DNA from: a virus
IMG/VR virus record: IMGVR_UViG_3300017565_000004
Span: 1,049 to 65,048 of that record
Strand: one strand, 5' to 3'
DNA length: 64,000 nt
How positions within the stretch are numbered: position 1 is the first letter of the stretch; each line of letters starts with the position of its first letter. A program made the position numbers and the translations under genes. The notes beneath the pieces were generated by a model, which had not been told where the DNA came from, did no database searches, and saw only the letters and a list, made by a program, of their open reading frames with translations. Shown one piece after another: positions 16,059-62,676 of this stretch.

Positions 16059-16870
16059 TGACCGAGCGCGATATCGAAACGTTAATCAAAGCATATAAAG
16101 ACGCTGTTAAACGTATCCGTGCCGAACTACTATCGCTCGACTTAACGGATATGACGCGGGCCGTAACGGAAGCGGCTCTCCGCGAAGTCGCCGGCATCTT
16201 ACGTGATCTTAACGAAGAATCCGCCGCATGGGTCGCGGAACATATACCGGAAGTCGCACGGCAGGCGGTCGCGGAAACAATCGTATCGGTCGGTGTGGCG
16301 TCTACGATAAAGGAAGCGCGCGAGATCATGACGTTTAGTCGTATGAATCAAACGCTAGTTAACGCAGTTATCGAGGATACGCAAGCGGATTTACTCGCTG
16401 TTACGCAGAATATCGACCGGCGAGTACGTTCGACCGTCCGTAAAGTTACCGCTGATTCAATGCGTGCGAATATGGCGGCGGGTATTAACGGTCGTAAAAC
16501 GATAAGCCGCGACATATTACAGAATATGCGGGCGGAACTCGGCAAGGCGGTCGAAACCGGCATTATTGACGCAGCCGGCCGCCGATGGAAACCGGAAGTA
16601 TACGTAGACATGGTCGTACGGACGAAAACGGCAGCGACGGCTCGTGACGTAAGAATAAACGAAGCAGTATCACGCGGCGTTTTATATGGGCGGATATCGA
16701 CGCATGGCGCGACGGACGCTTGCCGCAAATACGAAGGTAAAATCGTAAAGCTAGTACCGGATGCGCCCGGTGACTATCCGTATATTGGCGAACTACCGCG
16801 TAACGAAATATTTCATCCGAACTGTAAACACGTAGTTTTACCGGTTAGAAATCCGGAGCCGAGGGCGTAG
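16058..16870 (+). CDS. Minor capsid protein (gp7/MuF-like)
   Basis: DAAGRRWKPEVYVDMVVRT...CRKYEG...FHPNCKH. Confidence 0.85.
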   Translation: MTERDIETLIKAYKDAVKRIRAELLSLDLTDMTRAVTEAALREVAGILRDLNEESAAWVAEHIPEVARQAVAETIVSVGVASTIKEAREIMTFSRMNQTLVNAVIEDTQADLLAVTQNIDRRVRSTVRKVTADSMRANMAAGINGRKTISRDILQNMRAELGKAVETGIIDAAGRRWKPEVYVDMVVRTKTAATARDVRINEAVSRGVLYGRISTHGATDACRKYEGKIVKLVPDAPGDYPYIGELPRNEIFHPNCKHVVLPVRNPEPRA

Positions 16871-16902
16871 AAATAAATATAATTTCGGAGGTGAACTGTA
16901 GG

Positions 16903-19900
16903 GTGGGAATATCATTTCGCGAGGCCCTGCGACTTAATCTAACAAGCCCGGTAGCTAACGACGTAAAACTAGGATATATCATAAGGGAACTCCAAGAGAA
17001 GATTGAAGCGTTGGAGGAAAATCCCCCTGCCCAAGAGCCGCTATATTTAATTACAGGTGGCGAAGGCTATAGTAAAACAGGTACGTGGCAATCGTCATCC
17101 CTAAAGTCGTATAACGATTCGCCAACCGAGTACGCCAACGTTGGGGATAGCGTAGCTGTTTGGACAACTTACGCTCCTAGAAACGGGAACTACGATATAT
17201 TTGTGTGGTATCCCGAATCAACGTCGAGTAACAAAACTGCAAATTACGATATTATAACGCCGCTTGGTACGTGGAAGGTAGTTATAGATCAAACGGTTAA
17301 TGGCGGTAAGTGGTCTAGGCTCGCGACAATAAGGGGACAAAAAGGCGCTGGTATTACCGTTAGGTTAACGTCAAAGGCAGGCACCTCGACGAGAACAGGT
17401 GCTGTACAAATATCGTTTACAAGAAACGAAGCGGATGAGCCTTCTCCGACAGCACCGCAGGATACTACGAGCGTTTTAGTATTTGCTAACCAATCGGGAT
17501 ACGATCTTGATAAACCTAAGAGAGTAACAGTGACGAATGTTTCTGACGGCACAGCGTTTGCTGTAAAACGAGCAGACGACAACACGACAGTTTACACAGG
17601 GACTGTTACCGGACAAGTTGCTGATTTCACTTCGTACAATCCGGCAGGTGCAGCGACTACGCAATATTATGTAGAGTGTAACGCTGTAAAATCGGATAAC
17701 TTTAAGATCAACAAATACCTAATGGCAAGAGTAAGTACCGTTCCAGCATTGAGATTTATGGTAGAATCGCGATCCGATACATGGAAGCCTGGATTAAATG
17801 GACTTGGTTGGAGGGATTCGCATCAGTTTTCGTTTGAGCTACCTTCTTTAGTATGGCAGTACATGGCTAATCCATCCGTATATGACCGTATGCCTCACGG
17901 AGTTACGCATCTATCAGACTCAAAATTTGCAGCGCTTCGAACACAAAATGAGCCCGACATTGTTTGGCTGATTAAGTTTGGTGCTATGGTTTATTATGAT
18001 TTAGTTGTTAATAAAGGCAAGCAGTTACATGCACTAGTAAAAGCGCAGCTCGCCTATTTCTTATATCTCTACCCTCATATTAATCAATGGGTGGACGAAA
18101 CGCTTTATACGCAAATTAGAGATATGACGGTTACGCAGTGGTCCGTTGCAGGAGTGAGTTCTGACCTCCAATGGTACGATGTCGGATCGTCTACAGACAA
18201 CAACCTGTTAGCGACGCAAAGTGTAATCGGCGATATTAAGGGTTCACAACCGCCGGGCTACGCAATCTTACCGAATCTACTAATGTACGAGGTTGCCGTT
18301 CGTGACGGATTAGCTAACCCGCAGCAATACATGACAGCGGCGGTAAACAACGCTAAGTGGCTCGTAGATAACGTAGATTTAAGCAATCCGTCGTACACGA
18401 AAGGTCAGCGCATGTCCGAACACGTTACGCTTACCGCGCTTGCGTATATGCTTGAAAAGTATCCAGCGCAGGCACCATCCGGAACACAGGCGAAAATTGA
18501 CGCTTGGGCCGCTAAGATGATTGCGCGTTCTAATAACTTATGGGATTTACGTAAGTATTCGGACACTGCTGCGGGCGATTCGTTGTCTCAATGGACAGTC
18601 GGCGAATCAACGAACGAGCCGGGCAACATCGCAGGCTTCCCGTCAGTAGCATTAGCCGCTAGGCGAGTAATCGGTAATAGCGCGTACAAATCGAGACTTA
18701 TGGAACTTGCCGTATCGCATATCGACCACATGTTTGGACGTAACCCGTTCGGCAGACACTTCTCGCACGACGCGGCGACCGAAATAGAAGGCGTTAAACG
18801 TGGATGGGCCGTAGAGTATCCGGGCGTAGGCGCCGGCGATCTCGGTTCCGTACCGGCTGTTATCGATGGCTCACCGAAAGAATCAGCGTATCCATTTGCG
18901 CCGACCGCCGATCCGGGCTACGTCGAAGGTTGGGTGGCGCATAATACCGCATGGAATATGTCACTTGCGTATTCGGCGGCTGACGACGTAGAAGTTAAAG
19001 TATACGATTCGTCCTTTACGTCCGAAGTGATGACCGTTAACTCCGGCGACACAATCGGTATTCAACTTAAAGCGCCGTTAAATCTCGATCCAAGCGCCGT
19101 AGAGATGGGCGTAGTTAAAGTAACGTTAAGCAGCGGCACTGTCGTTGACGTGACGGTTACGGAAGTAACTGCGGACGATTTTTACTTCCGTGGGACATAC
19201 GTAGTCCCTGCGAATACTACTTACGTTAATGTATCGTATGGTTACGGATTGTTTAAGAAAGAAACACGCGTAAGTATCGGTGGGGAACCGCCGCAACAAG
19301 ATACAGAACCGCCAAGCGTGCCAACTAACTTAACGAGCGGAACGCCTACGACAGATTCCGTACCGCTTTCGTGGACAGCATCGACAGATAACGTAGGAGT
19401 AACCGGATATCGTATAGAAGGCGGAGCGAGCACGGTAGACATCGGAAATGTGACGAGCTATACATTAACGGGCCTATCGCCATCGACAACGTACGCGTTT
19501 ACGGTAAAAGCAAAGGATTCGGCGGGCAACGTTTCTAGCGCATCTAATGCCGTTACGATCACAACTGCCGCAGAGGTTGAACCGACGCAAGTTGCTTACG
19601 ATACATTTACGAGAGATAACGGACCGCTCGGAGTATCAGAATCCGGTCAAACGTGGGACGTTACCGCATCTAGTCAAGGTAGCGCATGGACGGTCGTAGA
19701 CGGAAAAGCGGCTTATACGGCGACTAACTTAGGGCTGGCGTTAATCGATGTAGGAACGCCTAACGCAAAAGTTTCCGCTAAGATCACATATCGCGCAACG
19801 GATGGATTAGCTGGCCGCGTAAAAGACTTTAGCAATCACTATATTGTACGTATAAGCAGTGCAGGCTTCGGAATGTTTAGGATTGTGAGCGGAGCATCTA

Positions 19901-20112
19901 CGTCAATCGGTAATTACGCGTTTACACCGACGGCTGGGCGAGAGTATCAAGTCGCTATGGAGTTTGACGGTACAACGATAAAAGGCTACTTAGACGGCGA
20001 GCTTAAAATCACAGCGCTAAACGAAACAGCCTACGCTACAGAGACAAAATTCGGATTGCGAGCTTCAAATTCCGTTAACGGTCGTTACGATGATTTTGTA
20101 ATCGAAGCTTAA
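16903..20112 (+). CDS. Multidomain glycoside-hydrolase-like protein: anchor peptide, CBM-like, Ig-like, GH9-like barrel, FN3, beta-sandwich
   Basis: ANQSGYDLDKPKR (CelD_N-like), HMFGRNPFG and EGWVAHNTAW (GH9-like), DTEPPSVP..LSWTASTDNVGVTGY (FN3); RBS GGAGGTG fits GTG 16903. Confidence 0.7.
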   Translation: MGISFREALRLNLTSPVANDVKLGYIIRELQEKIEALEENPPAQEPLYLITGGEGYSKTGTWQSSSLKSYNDSPTEYANVGDSVAVWTTYAPRNGNYDIFVWYPESTSSNKTANYDIITPLGTWKVVIDQTVNGGKWSRLATIRGQKGAGITVRLTSKAGTSTRTGAVQISFTRNEADEPSPTAPQDTTSVLVFANQSGYDLDKPKRVTVTNVSDGTAFAVKRADDNTTVYTGTVTGQVADFTSYNPAGAATTQYYVECNAVKSDNFKINKYLMARVSTVPALRFMVESRSDTWKPGLNGLGWRDSHQFSFELPSLVWQYMANPSVYDRMPHGVTHLSDSKFAALRTQNEPDIVWLIKFGAMVYYDLVVNKGKQLHALVKAQLAYFLYLYPHINQWVDETLYTQIRDMTVTQWSVAGVSSDLQWYDVGSSTDNNLLATQSVIGDIKGSQPPGYAILPNLLMYEVAVRDGLANPQQYMTAAVNNAKWLVDNVDLSNPSYTKGQRMSEHVTLTALAYMLEKYPAQAPSGTQAKIDAWAAKMIARSNNLWDLRKYSDTAAGDSLSQWTVGESTNEPGNIAGFPSVALAARRVIGNSAYKSRLMELAVSHIDHMFGRNPFGRHFSHDAATEIEGVKRGWAVEYPGVGAGDLGSVPAVIDGSPKESAYPFAPTADPGYVEGWVAHNTAWNMSLAYSAADDVEVKVYDSSFTSEVMTVNSGDTIGIQLKAPLNLDPSAVEMGVVKVTLSSGTVVDVTVTEVTADDFYFRGTYVVPANTTYVNVSYGYGLFKKETRVSIGGEPPQQDTEPPSVPTNLTSGTPTTDSVPLSWTASTDNVGVTGYRIEGGASTVDIGNVTSYTLTGLSPSTTYAFTVKAKDSAGNVSSASNAVTITTAAEVEPTQVAYDTFTRDNGPLGVSESGQTWDVTASSQGSAWTVVDGKAAYTATNLGLALIDVGTPNAKVSAKITYRATDGLAGRVKDFSNHYIVRISSAGFGMFRIVSGASTSIGNYAFTPTAGREYQVAMEFDGTTIKGYLDGELKITALNETAYATETKFGLRASNSVNGRYDDFVIEA

Positions 20113-20198
20113 CGGCTGACCACACGTACACGTCAATAAACTGTTTACGGATGTATTATTATAGCCGACGGGCTTTAACCGGTGGAGGTAACGATATT

Positions 20199-30093: not shown

Positions 30094-32064
30094 ATGGCGG
30101 AGATTAAGCAGTTAACCGGGGATATGACGTTACGCGTGATGTATCCGGAAGTAAATAAGAACATAACGAACGTGAATGCGGAAATCGTCGGACACAAAGC
30201 GTCGGAACAGGCGCACGCGGCCGATGCGATTACGTATAACGGGAACGTACCGGCAGCAAGCGTTAAAGAAGCGATTGATAAGACGGATTCGCGTATATCG
30301 GAGATTGTAGCGCAGGCTGGCGATAGTAACACGGAAATCGTAGATGCGCGAGGAGGCGCTCCGGTACTTGGCGAAAGACTTAACGGTCTTGATGAACAGT
30401 TGGCGGATACTAAGACTGAACTGGATGACGCTACAAGAAGCAGGGCAGTATCGAATGTGATAAAACGAATGATAAATGGTGACGCAGTTATTGTCGTCTG
30501 CTATGGCGATAGCATGACATTTGGATACACACCCGGCACAGGAGTAAAAACAGCTAATCCATACCCAGAGACATTGCAAAAGGTGTTACGCAAATATTAC
30601 AACAACAATAATATTACTGTTTACAATGAGGGGGTATCTAGTATAACTAGTGCGGGTCTAGCTTCTGATAGTAATATATTGAATGTTACTAGGCACGCTC
30701 CTCATTTGACGATTGTAATGGCTGGAATAAACGATAACCTACAAGGTGTAGATGTCTCTCAATATAAGGAGAATCTAAGGTTAATCCTTACTAAGATTAA
30801 CTCCGCATTCGTGTTGTTATCACCTACTCCTTACTACCGTACTAGTGGTGGTGGTGATTTAATAAATAGAAATCGGATATTGGAGTACGTAAAAGCAGCA
30901 GGTGAAATTGCACTACAGTTTAATGCTGATTTTGTAAATACATTTGATGCTGTTAATAAAGATATGCGCTTTTCAAATAAACGCTGGACTGATATTTTTG
31001 GTGACGACTTGCATTTTGTGGACTCATATTATCAACGATTCGCTAATATGGTTTTTGCAAAACGGTTGTGTAATGTAAACATCCTCATCGATAAAGATAC
31101 AAACATCAATACTTACGACGCAGCTTGGCAATTTGCTGGAACATATAGTTATTACGCAATGTCTAATAACCCACAAGTGCGAAACGTAATATTAAAGCCA
31201 GGCGCAAAGGCTACTGTTAATATTTTCATAGATGCTCCTGGAGCTAAAGTGTATTTAAGATGCCCAACAGGAACAAACGTACCTGCTCCAGCAATTTCAA
31301 CTAAAGTTACAGTGGATGATGCAATTAAAAACTGTGTACCACTTAATAGTGATTTCACAAGAAGGACAACAACAGCCACATCAGATATTTTTTGGGATGA
31401 GCGTTTTTATATTACCGAACTTCCATACGGGTTACACACATTGATTATAGAAAATAGCGGCTCATCTAACGATATATTCCTTTCCTCGTTAGAGGTAGAA
31501 ATAGCAGATAATCAAAAATCAATTAGTAGTAAAGCGGCAGCAAGCACATCAAGTCGTAATAAGATTGTCGATAACAGTTTATATTCATTGGTGGCAGGCG
31601 CTTCTAGTGGTATTCATTACAGTTTTATCAACAATTATGGTGGTGCTAAAAGAGGAAGTAAAATTAAGATAACACTTAATCCGAGTGGTGATACTGCAGG
31701 AATATGCTTAGGTTCACATTACGTGGTTAATGACGAAACCTTGTTCAAGACTCCAAAATTCGCAATTTATACAACCAATGGAGTTTTAATGTGTACCCTC
31801 ATTTCTACAGGCGGTTCAAGTGACAATCTTCCTTCACCTCGCTTCTTTCATGTTGCTAAGACAGGGAATGAAGTGTTTAATTTCAATACTGAAAATACCA
31901 TACTGATAGAGTACACAAATAATGGCGTGTCTATATTTGTTAACGATCAGTTATCACTTACATTAACGTATGATGAGTTTCTAGTAGGTGATTTAGACGT
32001 TTGGATGTATGCGTACAATGCTAATTCGAAAGTAGAAGTGACAAAAGTTGAAATTATTAGTTAA
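30094..32064 (+). CDS. Tail fibre or receptor-binding protein with SGNH esterase domain
   Basis: N-terminal EIVDARG..LGERL anchor; GDSMT, GIND, DDLH blocks. Confidence 0.82.
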   Translation: MAEIKQLTGDMTLRVMYPEVNKNITNVNAEIVGHKASEQAHAADAITYNGNVPAASVKEAIDKTDSRISEIVAQAGDSNTEIVDARGGAPVLGERLNGLDEQLADTKTELDDATRSRAVSNVIKRMINGDAVIVVCYGDSMTFGYTPGTGVKTANPYPETLQKVLRKYYNNNNITVYNEGVSSITSAGLASDSNILNVTRHAPHLTIVMAGINDNLQGVDVSQYKENLRLILTKINSAFVLLSPTPYYRTSGGGDLINRNRILEYVKAAGEIALQFNADFVNTFDAVNKDMRFSNKRWTDIFGDDLHFVDSYYQRFANMVFAKRLCNVNILIDKDTNINTYDAAWQFAGTYSYYAMSNNPQVRNVILKPGAKATVNIFIDAPGAKVYLRCPTGTNVPAPAISTKVTVDDAIKNCVPLNSDFTRRTTTATSDIFWDERFYITELPYGLHTLIIENSGSSNDIFLSSLEVEIADNQKSISSKAAASTSSRNKIVDNSLYSLVAGASSGIHYSFINNYGGAKRGSKIKITLNPSGDTAGICLGSHYVVNDETLFKTPKFAIYTTNGVLMCTLISTGGSSDNLPSPRFFHVAKTGNEVFNFNTENTILIEYTNNGVSIFVNDQLSLTLTYDEFLVGDLDVWMYAYNANSKVEVTKVEIIS

Positions 32065-32145
32065 TAAAGAACCTCGAAGTTAGTGTACTTTCAGTCTGAT
32101 TAAGCTTATAATTTTTGTTAAATATAGTTATAGGCGGTATTTGAT

Positions 32146-32349
32146 ATGATTAAGAGTATGACATATATAATTAAGAAGATGTTTGCCCATGAAAAGGAAG
32201 TAGTACCCGAAACGCATGAGGTTTGTTCGGAATGTAAAGGATCGGGTTTTGAAGATATGGTTTTTGATTGCCAACACTGCGAGGGAAGCGGTTATGTAAA
32301 AAAGCCATATTTAAAGTATATTGAAACCTTGCCGCCTTTGGATAATTAA
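32146..32349 (+). CDS. Small CxxCxGxG zinc-finger protein (YuiA-like)
   Basis: CSECKGSG and CQHCEGSG; AT-rich. Confidence 0.65.
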   Translation: MIKSMTYIIKKMFAHEKEVVPETHEVCSECKGSGFEDMVFDCQHCEGSGYVKKPYLKYIETLPPLDN

Positions 32350-32411
32350 CTGCGATAAGCTAAACGAATTATGTAACATAGTTGGACCATACTGTTCACT
32401 AAACGAAGGAG

Positions 32412-36772: not shown

Positions 36773-37693
36773 GTGGTTTTTGTGTTGTTGAAATTCGCAT
36801 ATCAAGATTTCATCGAGGATCGCCAGCTAAAGAATACATCTAAGAAAAACCTAATCAACTATACTACAATGCTCGGTGAGTTTATCGATTATTGTACGAA
36901 AAATGGCGTAATGAAAATCGAGGATATATCAGCAGTTACGATTAAGAGTTATCTATTCGAATGCAAAGAGCGCGGTAACGGTGCGGCTACGCTAAATACG
37001 AAGATTCAACGTATACGGGCGTTTATGAATTATCTAGTGGAGTCCGAATTTCTCACGAAAAGTCCCGCCGCGGCCGTTAAGCTCGTTAAGACGGACACGA
37101 AGATAGACGTATTTACTGACGATCATATTCGGCAAATGCTCGCCTATTACCGTAGTCTACGGCGGAAGGAACACGCCTTTTACGCTTACCGTGATTATAT
37201 GCTCATTATTTTCATGCTAGGTACGGGGGCGCGGCGTGGCGAGATATTGGTGCTGAAGTGGAGTGACGTCGATTTCGATAATGGTTCGGTGGCGCTATTC
37301 GGTAAGACGCGGAGGAGAGAGACGATTCCTATAACGGACAAGCTCGTTAAGGAGCTGCGCGCATATAAGATGTATCTGCATCAAACGTGGAAGGAACCGT
37401 CTGAGTACGTATTCACTAAACGCGATAATACGCAAATGACCGAAAACGCGCTGATGCTGATATTCACGAATCTGCGCAAGAAAATGGGGTTCGACGAGGT
37501 GCGGGTGTCGCCGCACACGTTTCGCCATACGTACTGTCACCGGTTAGCAATGTCCGGTATGTCTGCGTTCGCCATACAGAAGCTGATGCGACATCAGAAT
37601 ATATCCGTAACGATGCGGTACGTGGCGATGTGGGGAAATGAACTTCGCGAACAGAACGATAAGCATAATCCGTTAAACAATATCGATATCTAA
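36773..37693 (+). CDS. int: Tyrosine integrase
   Basis: GARRGE, HTFRH, MRHQNISVTMRY catalytic set; N-terminal SAM-like domain. Confidence 0.93.
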   Translation: MVFVLLKFAYQDFIEDRQLKNTSKKNLINYTTMLGEFIDYCTKNGVMKIEDISAVTIKSYLFECKERGNGAATLNTKIQRIRAFMNYLVESEFLTKSPAAAVKLVKTDTKIDVFTDDHIRQMLAYYRSLRRKEHAFYAYRDYMLIIFMLGTGARRGEILVLKWSDVDFDNGSVALFGKTRRRETIPITDKLVKELRAYKMYLHQTWKEPSEYVFTKRDNTQMTENALMLIFTNLRKKMGFDEVRVSPHTFRHTYCHRLAMSGMSAFAIQKLMRHQNISVTMRYVAMWGNELREQNDKHNPLNNIDI

Positions 37694-41882: not shown

Positions 41883-42152
41883 TTACTTTTGTTCCCGTTC
41901 ACGTTCTCGTAGGAGGTACGGCATAATATCGAGGTAAGTGTCGGAAACCTCTACGAACTCTACTACGTCCTCAATACGGCAATCGAGATAATCGCAGATA
42001 CGTGCGATCACTTCTAACGATACGAATCCGCCATTACTCATCTTGGCGAGCGTAGTACCGGAAATACCGGCTTCTTCACGCAAGTGTTTCCTTAACTTAT
42101 CGCGTTTGATTAACGTTATTTCTAGCGGTTTGTAGGATGGTTTAATGCGCAT
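41883..42152 (-). CDS. Xre/HTH_26 transcriptional regulator
   Basis: LREEAGISGTTLAKM...LEVIARICDYLDCRIEDVVE. Confidence 0.85.
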   Translation of the reverse strand: MRIKPSYKPLEITLIKRDKLRKHLREEAGISGTTLAKMSNGGFVSLEVIARICDYLDCRIEDVVEFVEVSDTYLDIMPYLLREREREQK

Positions 42153-42182
42153 AGTGGACGCTCCTTTCGTGATCATGGACTT

Positions 42183-42249
42183 ATTATACGCTAATTCGGA
42201 AAAAATATTCAACGTAGGGGTTGACGGAAAATTGTACCGGTGATATTAT
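42183..42249. promoter_or_regulatory. Back-to-back sigmaA promoters
   Basis: Plus strand: TTGACG(42221)-17-TATTAT with TG extension; minus strand: TTGAAT(42212)-18-TATAAT. Confidence 0.7.
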
Positions 42250-42498
42250 AAGTCCATAAACACGTATATAAAGTTCATCATCACCGTAAATAAATCCACT
42301 CGCGGCATACACGGCAATTCCCCGCCAGCCGCCGATAATCCCCGATATAACCCTCCGCTAAAAATGACGTAAGCCGCGCGTGCCTCTCACGTGTAATTAC
42401 GTATAGCTTAACGATCCCCCTAAACGTTGAGCAGCGCAGGGCTTTTCCGTTTTGTCGGAAGGCCTTACGTGTATATTACGAAAAGGAGGCGCTAATAT

Positions 42499-42639
42499 AT
42501 GAAACTCGGAAACTATACGTCAAATCCGCCGGCGCTGCTGCTCGAACTCGCGGCAATGGCGGAGCAGAACGGTAATGAACGGGCACGCCGCGTTTATATG
42601 GCGAACTATTTACGATTAACTGACGAAAGGAGACGATAA
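42499..42639 (+). CDS. 46-aa hypothetical protein (not in the ORF track)
   Basis: RBS AAAGGAGG; ends just before the next ATG. Confidence 0.6.
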   Translation: MKLGNYTSNPPALLLELAAMAEQNGNERARRVYMANYLRLTDERRR

Positions 42640-42640
42640 T

Positions 42641-43069
42641 ATGAACAGAACGGAAATCGAAGCGAAGTGGAGTACGCTGACGGCGCGCGAACGTGACGCT
42701 TGGGTAGCGGAGGTTATTTTCGGATATTACTGGGCGGACTTATTTCCGCATATGAAATCGGTAGAAAAAATACGTATGCTTACTGCCCCTATTGGGGATG
42801 CGATGCGAAACGTAGGAGGTCGCGTGGATTCATACGGTATACCAGAAAGTCTACCGAATTACACATCGGATATTTCGGCGGCGTGGGCGGTACTTGAATC
42901 GAGCCGAGCGTGGGGCGGAATGGGGATCGGATATTATACGCATGGTTACGACATTAGTACGTATACCGATTCAACACCGAATCAGAAACCGGTAAAGGTA
43001 ACGAAGCCGACCGCACCAGAAGCGATATGTCTCGCAGTACTTATCGCGAAATTGACGGAGGTGTCGTAG
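42641..43069 (+). CDS. Phage ABA-sandwich domain protein
   Basis: YTSDISAAWAVLE...APEAICLAVL. Confidence 0.75.
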   Translation: MNRTEIEAKWSTLTARERDAWVAEVIFGYYWADLFPHMKSVEKIRMLTAPIGDAMRNVGGRVDSYGIPESLPNYTSDISAAWAVLESSRAWGGMGIGYYTHGYDISTYTDSTPNQKPVKVTKPTAPEAICLAVLIAKLTEVS

Positions 43070-43272
43070 TGGAATATCGGAAGCATACCGTTTATTTACC
43101 GGAAGGGACGTACGCCGTATCGCGCGGCGGGCAGATCATCGGATTCGTTACGGCTGCAGACGTTGCCGAGGCCGGAGTCGTTGCGGAGGAAGTGTACGGA
43201 CAGTTTAACGGAATAAGTAGCGCGGTGTTATCGGTCGATGCGCGGCGATGTGCTGACGGTAGTACGAAGTAG
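43069..43272 (+). CDS. Hypothetical protein
   Basis: RBS GGAGGTG; TAGTG coupling. Confidence 0.55.
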   Translation: MEYRKHTVYLPEGTYAVSRGGQIIGFVTAADVAEAGVVAEEVYGQFNGISSAVLSVDARRCADGSTK

Positions 43273-43344
43273 ATTCTAAAGGTTCACCACCATATCGTTG
43301 GAGTCAACGACATGGTTGATTCAAACTGTGAAGGAGGATTGAGT

Positions 43345-43641
43345 ATGAATTGTTGTTCTAACGATGGATGCAAAAGACCAGTCATTGGTCAAGGGCAATG
43401 TATAGAGCATTACAAGAGTCCGACAGGTGCAACAACATGGATTGTAATCAATACTGTTTATTTTAACGATGGAAGTCATGAAATCTACGGATATAAGGTT
43501 AAAAACGAAGATGGCACGAAGCGAAAAATTATATCTTCAAAGACCGCAAACGCACTTACTCTTAAAGGCGAATTAAGAGTGTCAGACAGACAAGAGCTAT
43601 CCTTTTGTTCTGTAGGTAGAGATTTTATCGAAGTTGATTAG
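43345..43641 (+). CDS. AT-rich accessory protein with N-terminal Cys cluster
   Basis: RBS AAGGAGG; CSNDGC...CIEH. Confidence 0.65.
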   Translation: MNCCSNDGCKRPVIGQGQCIEHYKSPTGATTWIVINTVYFNDGSHEIYGYKVKNEDGTKRKIISSKTANALTLKGELRVSDRQELSFCSVGRDFIEVD

Positions 43642-43706
43642 TGAACAGTACGACCGCAAAAACGAAGTTGATTCATATTGTTCAATAAATTTAAGGAGGA
43701 AATTTT

Positions 43707-44027
43707 ATGTCTGAAAAATCTGTAGTAGTAACTTATCAAACACAACAAACATATTGCCGTTGCTGTAATCAAAGTTTAGCACAAGAAAAAGTGAGCGCAC
43801 CTATGCAAATAGCAATAACAAAAGAAACAGCTCTTTCTTGGAGTGAATGGAATGATATTGTTGATTATCCAGAAGATCTTGACGGTATCGTGTATGAATT
43901 TGTTCGTGAAACAATCTACTTCTATTCAGCAACCTCTTATGAAAAACTCTTAATTGATGATGCGGAATACGAGAAAGTAAAGGAGTTTATCTTGAAAGAA
44001 GTTGTTGAACAGTACGACGATATTTAG
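43707..44027 (+). CDS. AT-rich accessory protein
   Basis: RBS AAGGAGG. Confidence 0.65.
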   Translation: MSEKSVVVTYQTQQTYCRCCNQSLAQEKVSAPMQIAITKETALSWSEWNDIVDYPEDLDGIVYEFVRETIYFYSATSYEKLLIDDAEYEKVKEFILKEVVEQYDDI

Positions 44028-44051
44028 TGCGAAGTAAGAGGAGGAAATTAC

Positions 44052-44174
44052 ATGGAGTGTTGTCTATGCGATAAAGAGTTAGATGATACAAAAGACGACA
44101 GCTATGAGTATGACTATATGGGCAATGCATGGTGTAAAGAGTGCATGGATAAAGAAGTTAATCGAGAAATGTAA
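44052..44174 (+). CDS. 40-aa CxxC..CxxC zinc-finger peptide (not in the ORF track)
   Basis: RBS GAGGAGG; MECCLCDKEL...WCKECM. Confidence 0.6.
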   Translation: MECCLCDKELDDTKDDSYEYDYMGNAWCKECMDKEVNREM

Positions 44175-44977
44175 TGAACAGTTCGACGAAACAACGAAAT
44201 AAGGAGGCGTTAACACTGGCGAATCACTCTAAACGTTGTAACCTACGCCATGTCTGCCGTTCCGTTAATACAGCCGCATGTAACAAATTGTGCTCGGCAT
44301 TCATCGGACTTCACGGCGTAACGGGCGATGGCGGTCGAGTTAGCTCCGCAAACATACCGGACGAATACCGGCACATCACGTTAACTACTTCGCCGGCAAG
44401 CGAAGGGCAGCCGGACATTTACGCACACTTGGCGGAATATATAAAAACATTTACGCGGCAATTTGACGATGACAGCCCGCCGATCAAATCGTTATACCTA
44501 TATTCGAACGAGCCTGGCACGGGCAAAACGACGACAGCCGCGGCGGTGGCTAACGAATACCTTAACGTACATTACATCGGCTCACTTCTGCGCAATAGGC
44601 AAGCGTTAGAAAGACCGGTATATTTTCTCGACGTTAACGAGTGGCAGACGAATTATAATACGTTTAATCGGCCGAAAGTTCCCGATAATATAGCGATGCC
44701 GGCTGCTGAACGATTTTATAACGCTATGACGGCGGCCATGTCGGCGCCATTCGTAGTGTTCGATGATGTAGGCGTTCGTGACGCTACAGAAGCTTTCCGT
44801 TCAGAGTTGCATACGATTATTAACGAACGCGTGGCGAATGGGCTACCGTCCGTGTATACGTCGAATATTCCAATGGCGGAAATGGCGAAATTGTTCGACC
44901 GTCGTATCGCGGATCGTTTCCGTCAGCAAACGATTGAATTTACGTTTAAGGGAACGAGTAAGCGCGGAGTACGATAA
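44174..44977 (+). CDS. DnaC/IstB-like ATPase (helicase loader); likely CTG start at 44216
   Basis: PGTGKTT, VFDDVG, IINER, YTSN, RIADR. Confidence 0.85.
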   Translation: MNSSTKQRNKEALTLANHSKRCNLRHVCRSVNTAACNKLCSAFIGLHGVTGDGGRVSSANIPDEYRHITLTTSPASEGQPDIYAHLAEYIKTFTRQFDDDSPPIKSLYLYSNEPGTGKTTTAAAVANEYLNVHYIGSLLRNRQALERPVYFLDVNEWQTNYNTFNRPKVPDNIAMPAAERFYNAMTAAMSAPFVVFDDVGVRDATEAFRSELHTIINERVANGLPSVYTSNIPMAEMAKLFDRRIADRFRQQTIEFTFKGTSKRGVR

Positions 44978-59657: not shown

Positions 59658-60374
59658 TTGACGAAAGCAAACGTAACACATATCGAACTAAACAACGAGA
59701 TTATGACGCGAGGGGCCGACGGATGGTATCAGCTCGATAAAGACCGCGAGGCCGTCGACGTATTCCTAGCGGAAGTGACCGCGAAAAGCCGCAAGTTTCC
59801 GTCGCAGGCCGCTCGATATCGTTGGCTTATCGACAACGGATATTACGACGATATGCTGGCGTTATATGGCGAGGCGGCGGTCGAGCGCGTCGTTGCCGTA
59901 TGTAATTCGTACGGATTCCGTTTCGCTTCGTATATGGCCGCGTCGAAGTTTTACAAGGATTACGCGTTAAAGACGGATAACAAGGCGGAGTACCTCGAAT
60001 CGTATGCGGAACACGTCGCGCAAGTGGCGTTATATCTCGGACAAGGTGACGCTGCGGCAGCGGAAAGATTCGCGCGGTCAATGATGGAACAGCGGTTGCA
60101 GCCGGCGACACCAACGTTTATGAACGCGGGCCGTGCGAAACGTGGCGAGATGGTATCGTGTTTCCTACTCGAAATGGACGATTCGCTCAATTCGATTAAC
60201 TACGTAATTGCGACGTGTATGCAATTATCGAAGATAGGCGGCGGCGTGGCGGTCAACTTATCGAAACTGCGCGGTCGTGGAGCGCCGATTAAAGGCGTAG
60301 AAGGCGCGGCAAAAGGCGTTATGCCCGTTATGAAGCTGATGGAAGATGCGTTTAGTTACGCAGATCAGATGGGT
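59658..60374 (+). CDS. nrdE: Ribonucleotide reductase class Ib alpha subunit, exon 1
   Basis: QPATPTFMNAG, VSCFL, SKIGGG; ends ADQMG. Confidence 0.93.
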
Positions 60375-61293
60375 TAAATTTGGCCCCTTCCGTTGGTAAC
60401 AGCGGTCGAAAACCTCTCTAATTCATGGGAAACCCAAGCAAGGAGGGCAATCATGAGCGAAGCAAGACAAGTATGGAATAAAGCTGACATTGACGAATCA
60501 TTTATTCGCGATAATTACGGTAGTATGAGCGCAAGAGAAATAGGCGAGATATTAGGGGTGTCTCGCGAATTAATCAACCATAGAGTAAGGTCGTTAGGAC
60601 TGCGGAAAACAAAGATACCATACACGCCGCTAGACGGTGAAGTGCTTGCTTCCATAAAAGGAATAAGTGAGTACGCGGTCTCTAACAAGAGCAGAGTAGT
60701 TAATCTTAAAGAGATGACGCTAGTAAAGCCTAAGATAGATCGGGAAGGATATTGGAAAGTGACGTTATTTATCGATGGAAAACGTTTAGAACGACGATTA
60801 CATCGGATAGTAGCAGAGGCTTTCATTCCCAATCCACTAAATTTACCATTCGTCAATCATATAGACGGTGTTAAAACAAACGCAGAGATAACTAACTTGG
60901 AGTGGGTATCTCCTAAAGGAAACGCAGAACATGCCTCGAAAATCGGGCTACTTGCAAGAGGAGAAGATTCGCCAAATGCGAAGATAACAGAAGATCAAGC
61001 TAAGAGTATTCTAGCTGATTCGATCAACGGTTTAAGTAATGAACAAATACTAGCGAGGCATCCCTATGCCACTAAATCAATTATAGCCAAAATCGCGAAT
61101 AGAACTCGTTGGAAGCATTTATCCTGTACGTCTTGAACGTGCAACGACTAGGCGAGAGCCGTAGGGCGCAAGCGATTGGCGTTCGAAATGGGAGGGGTCC
61201 TGTTCTACAGGATCGTGATATAGTCTGCTCTACATGGGAACATGTAGCTGCCATATGGCGGCATGAGTGTAGCGAACTCATGTGAACACAACG
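60375..61293 (+). mobile_element. Group I intron in nrdE
   Basis: Exon ends in U and intron ends in G; splicing restores DQMG-QRKGSG; R element GCAACGACTA at 61141, S element GATATAGTCT at 61217; P1 GGGU/GGCCC. Confidence 0.92.
60453..61136 (+). CDS. Intron-encoded HNH homing endonuclease (NUMOD4-HNH)
   Basis: YAVSN, LHRIVAEAFIPNP, VNHIDGVKTN..NLEW. Confidence 0.9.
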   Translation: MSEARQVWNKADIDESFIRDNYGSMSAREIGEILGVSRELINHRVRSLGLRKTKIPYTPLDGEVLASIKGISEYAVSNKSRVVNLKEMTLVKPKIDREGYWKVTLFIDGKRLERRLHRIVAEAFIPNPLNLPFVNHIDGVKTNAEITNLEWVSPKGNAEHASKIGLLARGEDSPNAKITEDQAKSILADSINGLSNEQILARHPYATKSIIAKIANRTRWKHLSCTS

Positions 61294-62676
61294 CAAAGAA
61301 AAGGAAGCGGCGCGGCTTACTACAATATTTTCGGATGGGACGTTATCGAGTTCCTGGATTCGAAGAAAATTAACGCAGATGAGAAATCCCGCATCAAAAC
61401 GTTATCAATCGGCTTAATCGTACCGGATAAGTTTTACGAACTGGCACGCGAAAACAAAGCGTTATACGTGTTCGAACCTTACTCCGTATACAAGACGTTT
61501 GGCGTGCATTTAGACGACGTAAATATGACGGATATGTACGACGTACTCCTGCAGAATCCGAACGTAGTTAAACGCCGCGTTATGATGGCCCGCGATATGT
61601 TAACGAAGATTGCGACGATCCAGCTCGAATCCGGATATCCGTACATTGCGAATATCGATAACGCAAACGGACAGCACGCTAATAAAGAACTCGGTCGCGT
61701 GAAGATGTCGAATCTCTGTACGGAAATTTTTCAGCTACAGGAGACGTCCACGATTACGGATTACGGGGAGCCGGATGTTATTCGTCGCGATATTTCGTGT
61801 AACCTCGCATCGCTCAACATTGTCAACGTTATGGAATCCGGTAAGCTGCGCGAATCTGTTCACGAAGGCATGGACGCGTTAACGGTCGTAACCGATCAGT
61901 CGGCCGTGGCTAATGCGCCAGGCGTCCGTAAAGCTAACCGCGAGCTGCATTCCGTCGGCCTCGGCGTAATGAATCTTAACGGATTCCTTGCGAAGAATAA
62001 GATAACGTACGAGTCAGCCGAAGCCCGCGACTTCTGCCGGACATTCTTCGCGGCTATGAACTATTATTCGTTAGAACGTTCGATGCAGATCGCCCGCGAA
62101 CGGGGCGTGACGTACGAAGGATTCGAAAAGTCCGATTATGCGTCCGGTAAGTATTTCGAGCGCTACTTGGCGGAAGATTTCGTGCCAAAAACGGAACGAG
62201 TGCGAGAGTTGTTCGCTGGCTTTACGTTACCGTCGCGGTATGAGTGGGCAGCGCTGTCTGCTGACGTTGCGGAGTACGGGCTATATCACGCGTACCGCCT
62301 AGCGATTGCACCTACGCAAAGTATATCGTATATCCAAAACGCCACGTCGTCCGTTATGCCGATTGTCGAGCATATCGAAACGCGTACGTACGCTAACTCT
62401 ACTACGTTTTACCCGATGCCGTATCTATCGCAGGATAACTTCTTCTTCTACAAATCCGCGTATAACATCGATCAATTTAAGCTTATCGATTTGATTGCGG
62501 AGATACAGCCGCATTGCGATCAAGGCATTAGTACGGTGCTTCACGTTAACTCGGACGTGACGACGCGTGAACTAGCGAGACTGTACGTATATGCGCATCA
62601 TCGCGGATTGAAGTCACTTTATTATACCCGTACGAAGCGCTTGTCGGTCGAGGAATGTACGAGTTGCGCGGTTTAA
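61294..62676 (+). CDS. nrdE: Ribonucleotide reductase class Ib alpha subunit, exon 2
   Basis: MSNLCTE, SCNLAS, IAPT, SLYY, C-terminal CTSC. Confidence 0.93.
   Translation, partial: QRKGSGAAYYNIFGWDVIEFLDSKKINADEKSRIKTLSIGLIVPDKFYELARENKALYVFEPYSVYKTFGVHLDDVNMTDMYDVLLQNPNVVKRRVMMARDMLTKIATIQLESGYPYIANIDNANGQHANKELGRVKMSNLCTEIFQLQETSTITDYGEPDVIRRDISCNLASLNIVNVMESGKLRESVHEGMDALTVVTDQSAVANAPGVRKANRELHSVGLGVMNLNGFLAKNKITYESAEARDFCRTFFAAMNYYSLERSMQIARERGVTYEGFEKSDYASGKYFERYLAEDFVPKTERVRELFAGFTLPSRYEWAALSADVAEYGLYHAYRLAIAPTQSISYIQNATSSVMPIVEHIETRTYANSTTFYPMPYLSQDNFFFYKSAYNIDQFKLIDLIAEIQPHCDQGISTVLHVNSDVTTRELARLYVYAHHRGLKSLYYTRTKRLSVEECTSCAV

Follow-up and report, generated by a model that had tools for sequence, protein, structure and literature searches.

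Repeated 30- to 50-nucleotide linkers flank interchangeable small genes in a phage early operon and may drive their shuffling

Three small early genes in a stretch of viral DNA (IMG/VR virus record IMGVR_UViG_3300017565_000004) are joined to each other and to their neighbors by short, two-part repeats, which recur at gene boundaries at a second place in the same genome, in a relative, and in an unrelated contig. The stretch analyzed, referred to here as the window, comprises 64,000 nucleotides (nt), bases 1049 to 65048 of the 65,048-bp record, which has 123-bp terminal repeats. The genome that holds the window, that of a soil phage, is called G000, and positions outside the window are given in G000:C1 coordinates. 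The explanation we lean towards is that recombination between these short linkers, driven by 30 to 50 nt of homology, shuffles the genes that lie between them. We infer that this recombination is homology-driven rather than site-specific and that it is ongoing.

The array occupies an island of 930 bp (43273–44200) with three early genes just upstream of the helicase-loader gene, and its linkers are built from two motifs, R and L. The consensus of R, whose 5′ end lies at or over the preceding gene's stop codon, is TGMACAGYWCRAC, followed by 7 to 11 nt and CGAAGT. That of L is CGWRGT-WGATTCA, continued by either N3-5-TGTTCA-RTAAA or AACTGTGAAGGAGG, after which comes the ribosome-binding site of the following open reading frame (ORF). 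Between two cassettes, R and L are fused via their common CGAAGT into a full linker of about 50 nt (43639–43689). The features of the region are as follows.

43027..43272, + strand: conserved early gene, 81 amino acids (aa), from the ORF list, with an orthologue in L074 (a locus of the relative G001)
43258..43277, + strand: junction J0, left array edge; a compressed R remnant, GGTAGTACGA, then the L core CGAAGT-AGATTC
43314..43337, + strand: second L, GGTTGATTCAAACTGTGAAGGAGG (subtype 2), leading into the ribosome-binding site of ORF1
43345..43641, + strand: cassette ORF1, 98 aa, with GGAGG 8 nt before the ATG at 43345
43639..43689, + strand: linker J1; R (TGAACAGTACGAC-CGCAAAAA-CGAAGT) fused to L (TGATTCATATTGTTCAATAAA)
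43707..44027, + strand: cassette ORF2, 106 aa, from the ORF list, with a second copy at G000:C1:687..1025
44006..44035, + strand: R2, TGAACAGTACGAC-GATATTTAGTG-CGAAGT, overlapping the end of ORF2 and leading directly into the ribosome-binding site of ORF3
44052..44174, + strand: cassette ORF3, 40 aa, from the ORF list
44175..44200, + strand: R3, right array edge, TGAACAGTTCGAC-GAAACAA-CGAAAT
44216–44977, within 44201..44977, + strand: predicted helicase loader, DnaC-like (phrog_50, E 6.6e-41), with an AAGGAGG ribosome-binding site from 44201

The order of such an array can be written as stop – L – gene – (R-L – gene)n – R – ribosome-binding site of the resident gene. In G000, it reads as the 81-aa gene, whose last codons and stop (ACG AAG TAG) fall inside the first L (43265–43277), followed by the second L, ORF1, R-L, ORF2, R, ORF3, R, and the ribosome-binding site of the loader gene. 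A first-pass annotation of this DNA had described a cassette-like array of small AT-rich ORFs that have ribosome-binding sites and no obvious promoter, and the composition and signals of the island agree with this description. The GC content of the island is 0.33 to 0.39 (300-nt windows), against about 0.50 in the flanks and 0.49 in the genome, and the GC content at third codon positions of its ORFs is 0.25 to 0.39, against 0.50 to 0.55. Each island ORF lies on the + strand and has a GGAGG-type ribosome-binding site 7 to 8 nt before its ATG. No promoter-like or + strand terminator-like site was found within 42249–44596, and the nearest upstream + strand promoter-like site, at 42221–42249, lies beside a repressor-like gene.

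The core of R, the 13-mer TGAACAGTWCGAC, occurs exactly and on the + strand at 43642, 44006, and 44175, as the first-pass annotation had stated, and these are the only exact copies in the window; G000:C1:986, 62 nt ahead of the window start, is the site of a fourth. The placement of these copies relative to stop codons had also been described correctly: R at 43642 directly follows TAG (43639–41), R at 44175 directly follows TAA (44172–74), and R at 44006 falls within the last 8 codons of ORF2. The R tail, CGAAGT or CGAAAT, is found 7 to 11 nt after each core (43663, 44030, and 44195). The string GTTGATTCA, already noted as recurring at 43315 and 43667, is present at both positions and is the core of the second motif, L (GTWGATTCA), which is also found at 43269 as GTAGATTC. 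By our own arithmetic, about 0.004 exact copies of a 12.5-base word are expected in 128 kb. When up to two mismatches are allowed, the window has 6 matches to TGAACAGTWCGAC, where 2.66 would be expected, and 6 or more occur in 6 of 100 shuffles. Because the loose matches are near the shuffle level, the signal lies in the three exact, clustered copies and not in the loose count.

All four exact R cores and all four L cores of G000 are at cassette junctions, on the coding strand, and in two loci only; in G001, three of three R and four of four L likewise lie at cassette junctions on the coding strand. Generalized R and L patterns gave no reverse-strand match and one extra forward R-like match (one substitution) inside coding sequence. 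The R core is located 36 to 65 nt ahead of the next start, and the 3′ end of R is immediately upstream of the Shine-Dalgarno sequence. The bases before L are CGNNGT in seven of nine aligned copies, GAAAGT in the eighth, and CATAGT in the tail copy. Direct CGAAGT repeats flank cassettes 1 and 2, and three cassettes in all were counted with such repeats; the flanks of the second copy of cassette 2 (copy B, see below) match only at 4 of 5 positions of CGWAG (CGTAG/CGAAG), and the G001 cassettes give 4-of-6 matches. Positions 10 to 13 of the core read CGAC in all four G000 copies of R and CAAC in all three G001 copies, and thus the linkers vary in concert within a genome. The idea that R encodes a short leader peptide was considered and set aside: its first codon varies (GTG, TTG, ATG, or CTG), and the excess of changes at third positions rests on five sites.

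A hairpin at the first R had been proposed in the first-pass annotation. The inverted partner, TATTGTTCA (43676), does pair with R in the minimum-energy fold, forming a 12-bp imperfect inverted repeat, and, in J1 only, 14 of 16 bases agree between the inner L and the reverse complement of R1. The J1 fold (-9.4 kcal/mol, z -0.48) is no better than those of shuffled sequences, 57 of 200 of which fold as well. Seven linkers were folded, with z values from -1.63 to +1.81, none of them significant, and the inverted repeat is present in one of the seven (J1). Since no other folded linker shows a significant fold, the hairpin was rejected as a defining feature of the family. The linkers matched no Rfam family, and no dyad-symmetric pair of binding arms and no 11-6-11 dyad are visible in the R and L consensus alignments.

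Cassette 2 is present twice in G000. Copy B lies between the dUTPase gene and thyX (G000:C1:644-1011), 44 kb away from the copy in the array (copy A). The inner block of the two copies (43680–44022, 343 nt) has 14 mismatches, and the next 17 nt outward, which form the outer half of L, have 4; the copies are unrelated beyond this outer half on the left and beyond TGAACAGTACGACGATA on the right. Because the divergence steps inside L and the homology stops inside R, the exchange of cassette 2 must have occurred within the linkers, and the outer linker halves look resident at each locus. The two ORF2 copies differ at 15 codons, and since 11 of these differences are synonymous (4 are non-synonymous), both copies are under constraint at the protein level. 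By this codon pattern, ORF2 at least is a real gene. In locus L115, the dUTPase gene directly abuts thyX, which represents the empty state of the dUTPase–thyX locus. A separate feature before thyX, just ahead of the window, is a 33-aa membrane-like ORF (L001 1011-1165, G000:C1) that starts with a diverged copy of the ribosome-binding site and first codons of thyX (ACGAAGGGGGCGGTTAAGTGAACGTTGATGTAATCGCA vs ACGAAGGAGGACGTAAATTGAACGTTAAATTAATCGCA); this suggests an insertion that duplicated the thyX gene start.

The relative G001, which is the source contig of loci L074 and L126 and is the same as L183, is colinear with G000 at 66 to 86% nucleotide identity. At its loader locus (L074; loader 79% identical at the aa level), two other ORFs, of 57 and 93 aa, are found with L, R-L, and R in the same places. 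G001 has a second array of two ORFs with the same linkers between nrdE and nrdF; in G000, these two genes are separated by an empty spacer of 30 nt. The first ORF of this second array and the C-terminal half of the 93-aa ORF are paralogous; their homology stops exactly at the stop codon, which is followed by R in one copy and by L in the other. The 22-nt subtype 2 L that precedes ORF1 in G000 also stands before a different ORF in the nrdE–nrdF array (L126 1196) and in L247, an unrelated contig described later. In L075 (loader 69% identical), there are no cassettes, and the upstream gene abuts the loader gene. Among 37 metagenome loci with loaders of 38 to 69% identity, only scattered single look-alikes at up to two mismatches were found (L075 and L082 were inspected).

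These relatives also bear on the loader gene itself, whose start is probably CTG 44216, because an in-frame TAA lies upstream in L074, whose ribosome-binding site and following CTG are the same, and TTG occupies this position in L075. A longer gene, with the R3 region as its true 5′ end (in-frame ATG 44174), was rejected in view of the stop found there in L074 and the TTG that L075 has in place of CTG. In G001, about 100 nt (L074 4920-5010) separate the last R from the loader ribosome-binding site. A tandem TTGAACACTT repeat and hexamers of the TTGAC type in this spacer may represent a promoter or operator, one not present in G000.

Further relatives, at 85 to 95% identity, were found in public assembled contigs from runs X5, X9, and X14, which were matched to the window at 85% likeness and belong to studies that differ from that of the source sample. 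Locus L006 and runs X1 to X4 represent the same phage or sample as G000 and were not counted as independent. Contigs from X5, X9, and X14 cover the 81-aa gene and diverge at 43248–43276. One X5 contig matches 43019–43276 and 44201–44547, with 404 other bases between these parts and 255 matching bases on the shorter side; everything between the L core and the ribosome-binding site, which is the whole array (43277–44200), has been exchanged. Breaks at the same two positions, 43276 and 44201, are seen in X14 contigs, one of which continues past 43276 with an L of the other subtype, GTAGATTC-ATATTGTTCAG, and a ribosome-binding site. In an X9 contig, the match to the window begins again at 44174, where R3 starts, and contigs from X5 and X9 match the window only across the J1 linker (43638/41–43684/89), with other sequence on both sides. 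This evidence is weaker than that from the assembled relatives because it consists of single, low-depth contigs at 85% likeness. Breakpoints of gain, loss, and duplication coincide with the motifs; the first-pass annotation had named such coincidence, for gain and loss, as a check. Its proposal depended on motif enrichment at accessory-gene boundaries and on variable gene content, and we find the motifs only at such boundaries and a content at this locus that varies among relatives.

One whole-gene indel near the array involves neither R nor L. The 142-aa ORF at 42641–43069 (Phage_ABA_S domain, E 1e-8) is precisely absent, from start to stop, in the X5, X9, and X14 contigs and in L074, and 3 to 4 other bases take its place in the contigs from the three runs.

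Searches with the motifs themselves returned few true relatives. The exact R pattern matched 67 loci in IMG/VR, about the number estimated by chance, and two copies were seen only in L006, a 4.6-kb fragment of the same phage. The L pattern matched 112 IMG/VR stretches, 80 of which were scanned by script, and only L183 (G001) was real. Four loci with both look-alike strings (L132, L177, L189, and L208) were discarded, since an unrelated phage carries the strings within its coding sequence (L132 and L177 were inspected). In genomes of 185,579 species, the composite R-L pattern had three matches (Prevotella, Alcaligenaceae, and Rhodopirellula), judged to be chance matches uninspected, and a helicase-loader profile found no relative. 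Against GenBank phages, the linker gave only three chance-level matches (E 0.5).

One further IMG/VR contig matched the composite R-L pattern. This contig, L247 (10.6 kb), has a GC content of 0.40, which fits the composition of the cassettes in G000 (cargo GC 0.34–0.37), and carries five motif junctions downstream of a C5 methyltransferase gene. The order is L and a 57-aa zinc-ribbon ORF, L and a 241-aa PAPS-reductase-like ORF, R-L and a 205-aa ORF, truncated R-L and a 36-aa ORF, and then a further R; the truncated R adjoining L is like that of J0. By blastn, L247 and G000 share a 45-nt linker only, 41 of 45 positions being identical (91%), spacer included (E 3e-11), and L247 has no match to G001. 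When eight L247 proteins were compared by tblastn, only the tyrosine recombinase matched G000 (29%, a remote match), and none matched G001. Hence, the linker crosses phage backbones, and its cargo can be an enzyme gene.

In the mechanism we propose, the linkers would serve as short, portable homology of about 30 to 50 nt. General or phage-encoded homologous recombination, or template switching, would act between linker copies, which could belong to a single genome, to co-infecting phages, or to resident prophages. Exchange from linker to linker could replace, duplicate, delete, or transplant the genes in between, and every product would retain whole gene boundaries. Homology-driven shuffling is favored because the exchange points lie inside both L and R and homology stops at no fewer than five linker positions (43276; 43641/2 or 44174; after the core plus 4 nt; 44201; and 43684–89), because R varies in concert, and because structure, dyad symmetry, and an adjacent recombinase are all lacking. 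It is further favored by the close parallel with the modular shuffling attributed to the promoter early stem-loop (PeSL) elements of T4-type phages (PMC2839356). The first-pass annotation had named microhomology-driven acquisition as one of two options. Of this option, the dependence on homology fits the data better, with the correction that the homology is a dedicated, conserved linker of 30 to 50 nt and not chance microhomology.

Several points weigh against this explanation. All the evidence is comparative, assembled contigs cannot show rare joints or circles, and few lineages count as independent (G000, G001, L247, and unassembled relatives in three runs). No single-strand annealing protein or dedicated homologous recombinase was recognized among the 48 window proteins scanned, of which several early ORFs have no family. 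A length of 13 to 50 nt is short for RecA-type recombination, and purely homologous exchange leaves the first insertion at four non-homologous intergenic sites unexplained. The CGNNGT before L and the direct CGAAGT repeats would also be expected from a site-specific or target-duplicating mechanism. Finally, homologues of the PAPS-reductase-like cargo lack the motifs in the best 80 of at least 573 matched loci; L249, the closest homologue inspected (80% nt identity), has degenerate look-alikes at both flanks.

A different reading, credible but on balance doubtful, is that the linker is an expression signal kept by selection, such as an mRNA binding or processing site or a spacer for termination–initiation coupling, and that recombination is incidental. 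Breakpoints would then coincide with the linker merely because it is the conserved part of the intergenic region. The linker always lies on the sense strand, runs from stop codon to ribosome-binding site, and is unstructured, as such a signal might be, and its 91% conservation between phages that share nothing else points to selection or to very recent transfer. A short frame through R that begins at the NTG overlapping the stop codon gives M-N/H-S-T/S-T..., and three of the five variable core positions are third positions, which is a weak indication. The Start-Associated Sequences (SAS) and Extended Start-Associated Sequences (ESAS) of mycobacteriophages offer a precedent for short, one-orientation repeats before the starts of non-structural genes (PMC3203893). 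Nevertheless, a 65-kb genome with only four R and four L, in two accessory loci, leaves nearly all early genes without the supposed signal, which should be more widespread if it were general; the linker, unlike SAS, does not contain the Shine-Dalgarno sequence and has no Rfam match; and the divergence step inside L between copies A and B shows exchange within L. An expression role would be compatible with a homology-driven or a site-specific mechanism, and it would explain conservation across unrelated phages.

It is unlikely, in our view, that the array is a site-specific cassette system of an integron-like or Xer/pdif-module-like kind, with R-L as the recombination site and a crossover at or near the joint of CGAAGT and WGATTC. 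Cassettes would excise as circles, L-gene-R closed by a full linker, and a phage Xer-like tyrosine recombinase or host XerCD would insert the circles beside contexts like ACGAAG-GAGG. The precise, oriented boundaries and the L-gene-(R-L-gene)n-R order are as expected from tandem circle insertions, and the CGAAGT repeats around cassettes 1 and 2, the CGNNGT-like bases before L, and the 12-bp inverted repeat of J1 would also agree with such a system. In addition, CGAAGGAGG is a recurrent ribosome-binding-site context (seven forward and zero reverse copies in G000), arrays occupy four unrelated intergenic sites, and both G000 and L247 encode a tyrosine recombinase, that of G000 being the following gene.

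36773..37693, + strand: predicted tyrosine recombinase, Xer-like (PF00589, E 4e-33)

This gene presumably encodes the phage integrase and is a context gene only as regards the array. It is the sole recombinase among the 48 window proteins scanned against Pfam and is located in the lysogeny region, 5.6 kb upstream of the array with some 12 genes between, which bears out the earlier remark that no dedicated recombinase is adjacent. Its scores are 42.8 bits against the integron-integrase model TIGR02249 (cut-off 265) and 30.6 against NF011946 (cut-off 435), and it scores under every NCBIfam cut-off. Such a distant recombinase, so far under the integron-integrase cut-off and only 29% identical to that of L247, speaks against a site-specific system, as do an inverted repeat in one of seven linkers, folds that do not beat shuffles, a consensus without a dyad-symmetric pair of arms, and homology that ends at five or more places and not at one core. 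Of the integron-like system that the first-pass annotation had put forward, the cassette-like array is therefore supported, and membership of the integrons, with no IntI, no conserved hairpin, and at least five homology ends, is not.

It is quite improbable, furthermore, that the array is a phage-borne, integron-like gene-capture platform, in which R-L would be a new, short, unstructured recombination site and the inserting enzyme would be Xer-like or unrecognized. Promoterless single genes would circulate as circles among unrelated phages of the same host and be inserted beside ribosome-binding sites. If true, this would imply a common pool of early, possibly counter-defense, genes that moves independently of phage backbones.

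That no special element exists, the island having been gained once from a low-GC phage by illegitimate recombination with repeats that are leftovers of donor intergenic sequence or of duplicated gene starts, is very unlikely: the AT-rich cargo resembling L247 (GC 0.34–0.37 vs 0.40), the motif-free indel of the 142-aa ORF (42641..43069), and the duplicated gene start before thyX without R or L would suit this, but a cassette was duplicated at another locus with its breakpoints inside the motifs, close relatives have different arrays, the array has been exchanged exactly from L to R, G001 has a second array with the same linkers at another locus, and R copies vary in concert within each genome.

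Returning to the shuffled genes, ORF1 consists of an N-terminal Cys-rich stretch and a C-terminal 65-aa module, which elsewhere forms free-standing proteins of 71 to 86 aa or the C terminus of proteins of about 150 aa. Its 11 homologues are 57 to 85% identical over the C-terminal two thirds, and three have Paenibacillus source names. Two IMG/VR contigs that encode ORF1-like proteins, L112 and L113, contain neither R nor L. These contigs have a recurring intergenic string of their own after small ORFs (L112, 3205-3262 and 3610-3665; L113, 3212-3240 and 3825-3875), which reads TAACCA(CCA)ATACA..TACGCTCCTGCACTCTGA.GGAGCGTTGGAAGGATG and has a GCTCC/GGAGC stem. Based on these strings, linker-type repeats of other sequence may be common in such phages. 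ORF2 is acidic (21 D/E and 9 K/R); no homologue was found outside its own phage among 5.8 billion proteins, nor in IMG/VR, and its AlphaFold model, with a predicted local distance difference test (pLDDT) score of 45, is unusable. ORF3 has a CxxC...CxxC zinc-ribbon-like pattern, with only a sub-threshold match to zf-FLZ. None of the three ORFs matched a Pfam or PHROG family, and ESM Atlas gave no usable match. We infer that the cargo acts early in infection, and its position upstream of replication genes suits host-takeover or counter-defense proteins; the first-pass annotation had suggested that the cargo may be anti-defense.

The genome around the array encodes a divergent, helix-turn-helix repressor-like gene (41883..42212, minus strand) and a rightward early operon with a DnaC-like helicase loader, a DnaB-like helicase, a primase, and DNA polymerase A. 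Other window genes include two homing-endonuclease genes, a RuvC-like resolvase, NrdI/E/F, dUTPase, ThyX, and DNA methyltransferases. DNA similarity to GenBank phages is confined to short stretches, of 66 to 80%, in Paenibacillus larvae and Bacillus phages. Judging from the encoded genes and these short similarities, G000 is a temperate phage without a close cultured relative, and its host, by the nearest DNA and protein matches, is presumably Paenibacillus-type and Gram-positive.

Three other places in the window deserve mention. An R-like string, ATGAACAGTTGGCGGATAC (15 of 19 bases as in R3), lies at a composition change where homology to G001 stops (30409). The AT-rich block 30393–32400 (GC 0.33–0.40) holds the C-terminal part of a 656-aa tail-region protein and a 67-aa ORF with a CxxCxGxG zinc finger (32146..32349), and at its right edge has an L-like string (32376–32399; 19 of 24 bases as in the L of J1, then ACGAAGGAGG); the R...L order of this block is the reverse of that of a cassette. 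The nrdE gene (59658–62676) is split into two ORFs by a 0.9-kb insert with an HNH_3/NUMOD4 homing endonuclease (60393..61136), which can be regarded as an intron-like or free-standing endonuclease insertion because both nrdE parts are contiguous in G001. A 1073-aa ORF of the head module (16891–20112) has no counterpart in G001, G000 16858–20118 corresponding to G001 41975–41992.

The gain and loss of small accessory genes in phages, with neighboring genes left intact, is usually ascribed to rare illegitimate recombination and subsequent selection. PeSL, the one well-described alternative, is tied to transcription signals in T4-type phages. In the temperate phages studied here, the points of gene exchange are marked by something much simpler, an unstructured spacer of 30 to 50 nt from stop codon to ribosome-binding site. 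Should the linkers be what drives this exchange, they would be a searchable signature of a mobile pool of accessory genes, the expected home of counter-defense and host-takeover genes. They would also be a natural example of homology arms of recombineering length and a handle for inserting genes into such phages.

A literature search (PeSL, Start-Associated Sequences, ORFan-linked intergenic repeats, and Paenibacillus phage repeats) yielded no description of the element, which is no proof that none exists, and we therefore compared it with systems that share some of its features. Integron arrays consist of promoterless single-gene cassettes in one orientation with repeated attC sites, and the repeats of V. 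cholerae are highly uniform. The array studied here resembles them in its promoterless, one-orientation cassettes, in differing among relatives, and in having the same repeat around unrelated cargo. It differs in that no IntI, attI, or Pc lies next to it, its linkers do not show the defining attC feature, an imperfect palindrome or hairpin, and homology does not end at one core; moreover, four different intergenic array sites make for a poor fit to a single attI.

Mycobacteriophage mobile elements (MPMEs) have one conserved ORF and 11-bp inverted repeats, and pdif (XerC-XerD) sites, known from Acinetobacter plasmids, are 28-bp dyads of the 11-6-11 type that flank a module in inverse orientation. 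With these and with miniature inverted-repeat transposable elements (MITEs), the cassettes share a unit size of about 0.2 to 0.8 kb, short defined ends, one small gene or module, and occurrence at various sites in related replicons. In contrast to MPMEs, the cargo here is unrelated, the ends are not consistent inverted repeats, and there is no transposase; in contrast to pdif modules, no 11-6-11 dyad is seen in either consensus. Morons are usually single insertions with their own promoter and terminator. The likeness to morons and lambdoid linkers lies in accessory genes of deviant composition between conserved genes and in exchange at short border sequences, and the difference from morons lies in an array with repeated linkers and no transcription signals. 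Martinsohn et al. 2008 reportedly describe Red-mediated recombination between diverged short homologies.

The SAS/ESAS of Cluster K mycobacteriophages are 13-bp sequences with the Shine-Dalgarno core inside, located 3 to 7 bp before the start; many copies are spread over the non-structural half of the genome, and their function is given as unknown (Pope et al. 2011, PMC3203893). R and L resemble them as short, phage-specific repeats in one orientation upstream of starts, sometimes with the upstream stop inside and before varied gene families. They differ in stopping short of the Shine-Dalgarno sequence, in occurring only at accessory arrays, and in marking indel breakpoints; R lies 36 to 65 nt before the start, and the four R and four L are confined to two loci.

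PeSLs are conserved intergenic repeats that flank ORFans in T4-type phages, with indels between related phages located at the repeats; recombination between repeats was proposed there, and mini-circles were detected (Arbiol et al. 2010, PMC2839356). PeSL cassettes are reportedly also the subject of Comeau et al. 2014. They are about 100 bp long with a strong sigma-70 promoter and a terminator stem-loop, whereas the linkers described here have 30 to 50 nt without these signals, and no promoter-like match of the sigma-70 type was found inside 43258–44218. The phages with PeSLs are large, virulent myoviruses that infect Gram-negative hosts and have about 50 such repeats per genome, and the linkers are found in one early operon of a temperate phage. 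The linkers are, in addition, two-part, with halves that also occur alone, are restricted to two loci per genome, and are common to an unrelated backbone. On the side of likeness, repeats in both systems run from the stop codon to the Shine-Dalgarno sequence beside ORFans in plastic regions. Indels and replacements between relatives fall at the repeats, as seen here in copies A and B, at two loci of G000 vs G001, and at the X5 joint, and the recombination proposed for both occurs between repeats and keeps gene boundaries intact. By this comparison, we regard PeSL as the closest known system to the linkers described here.

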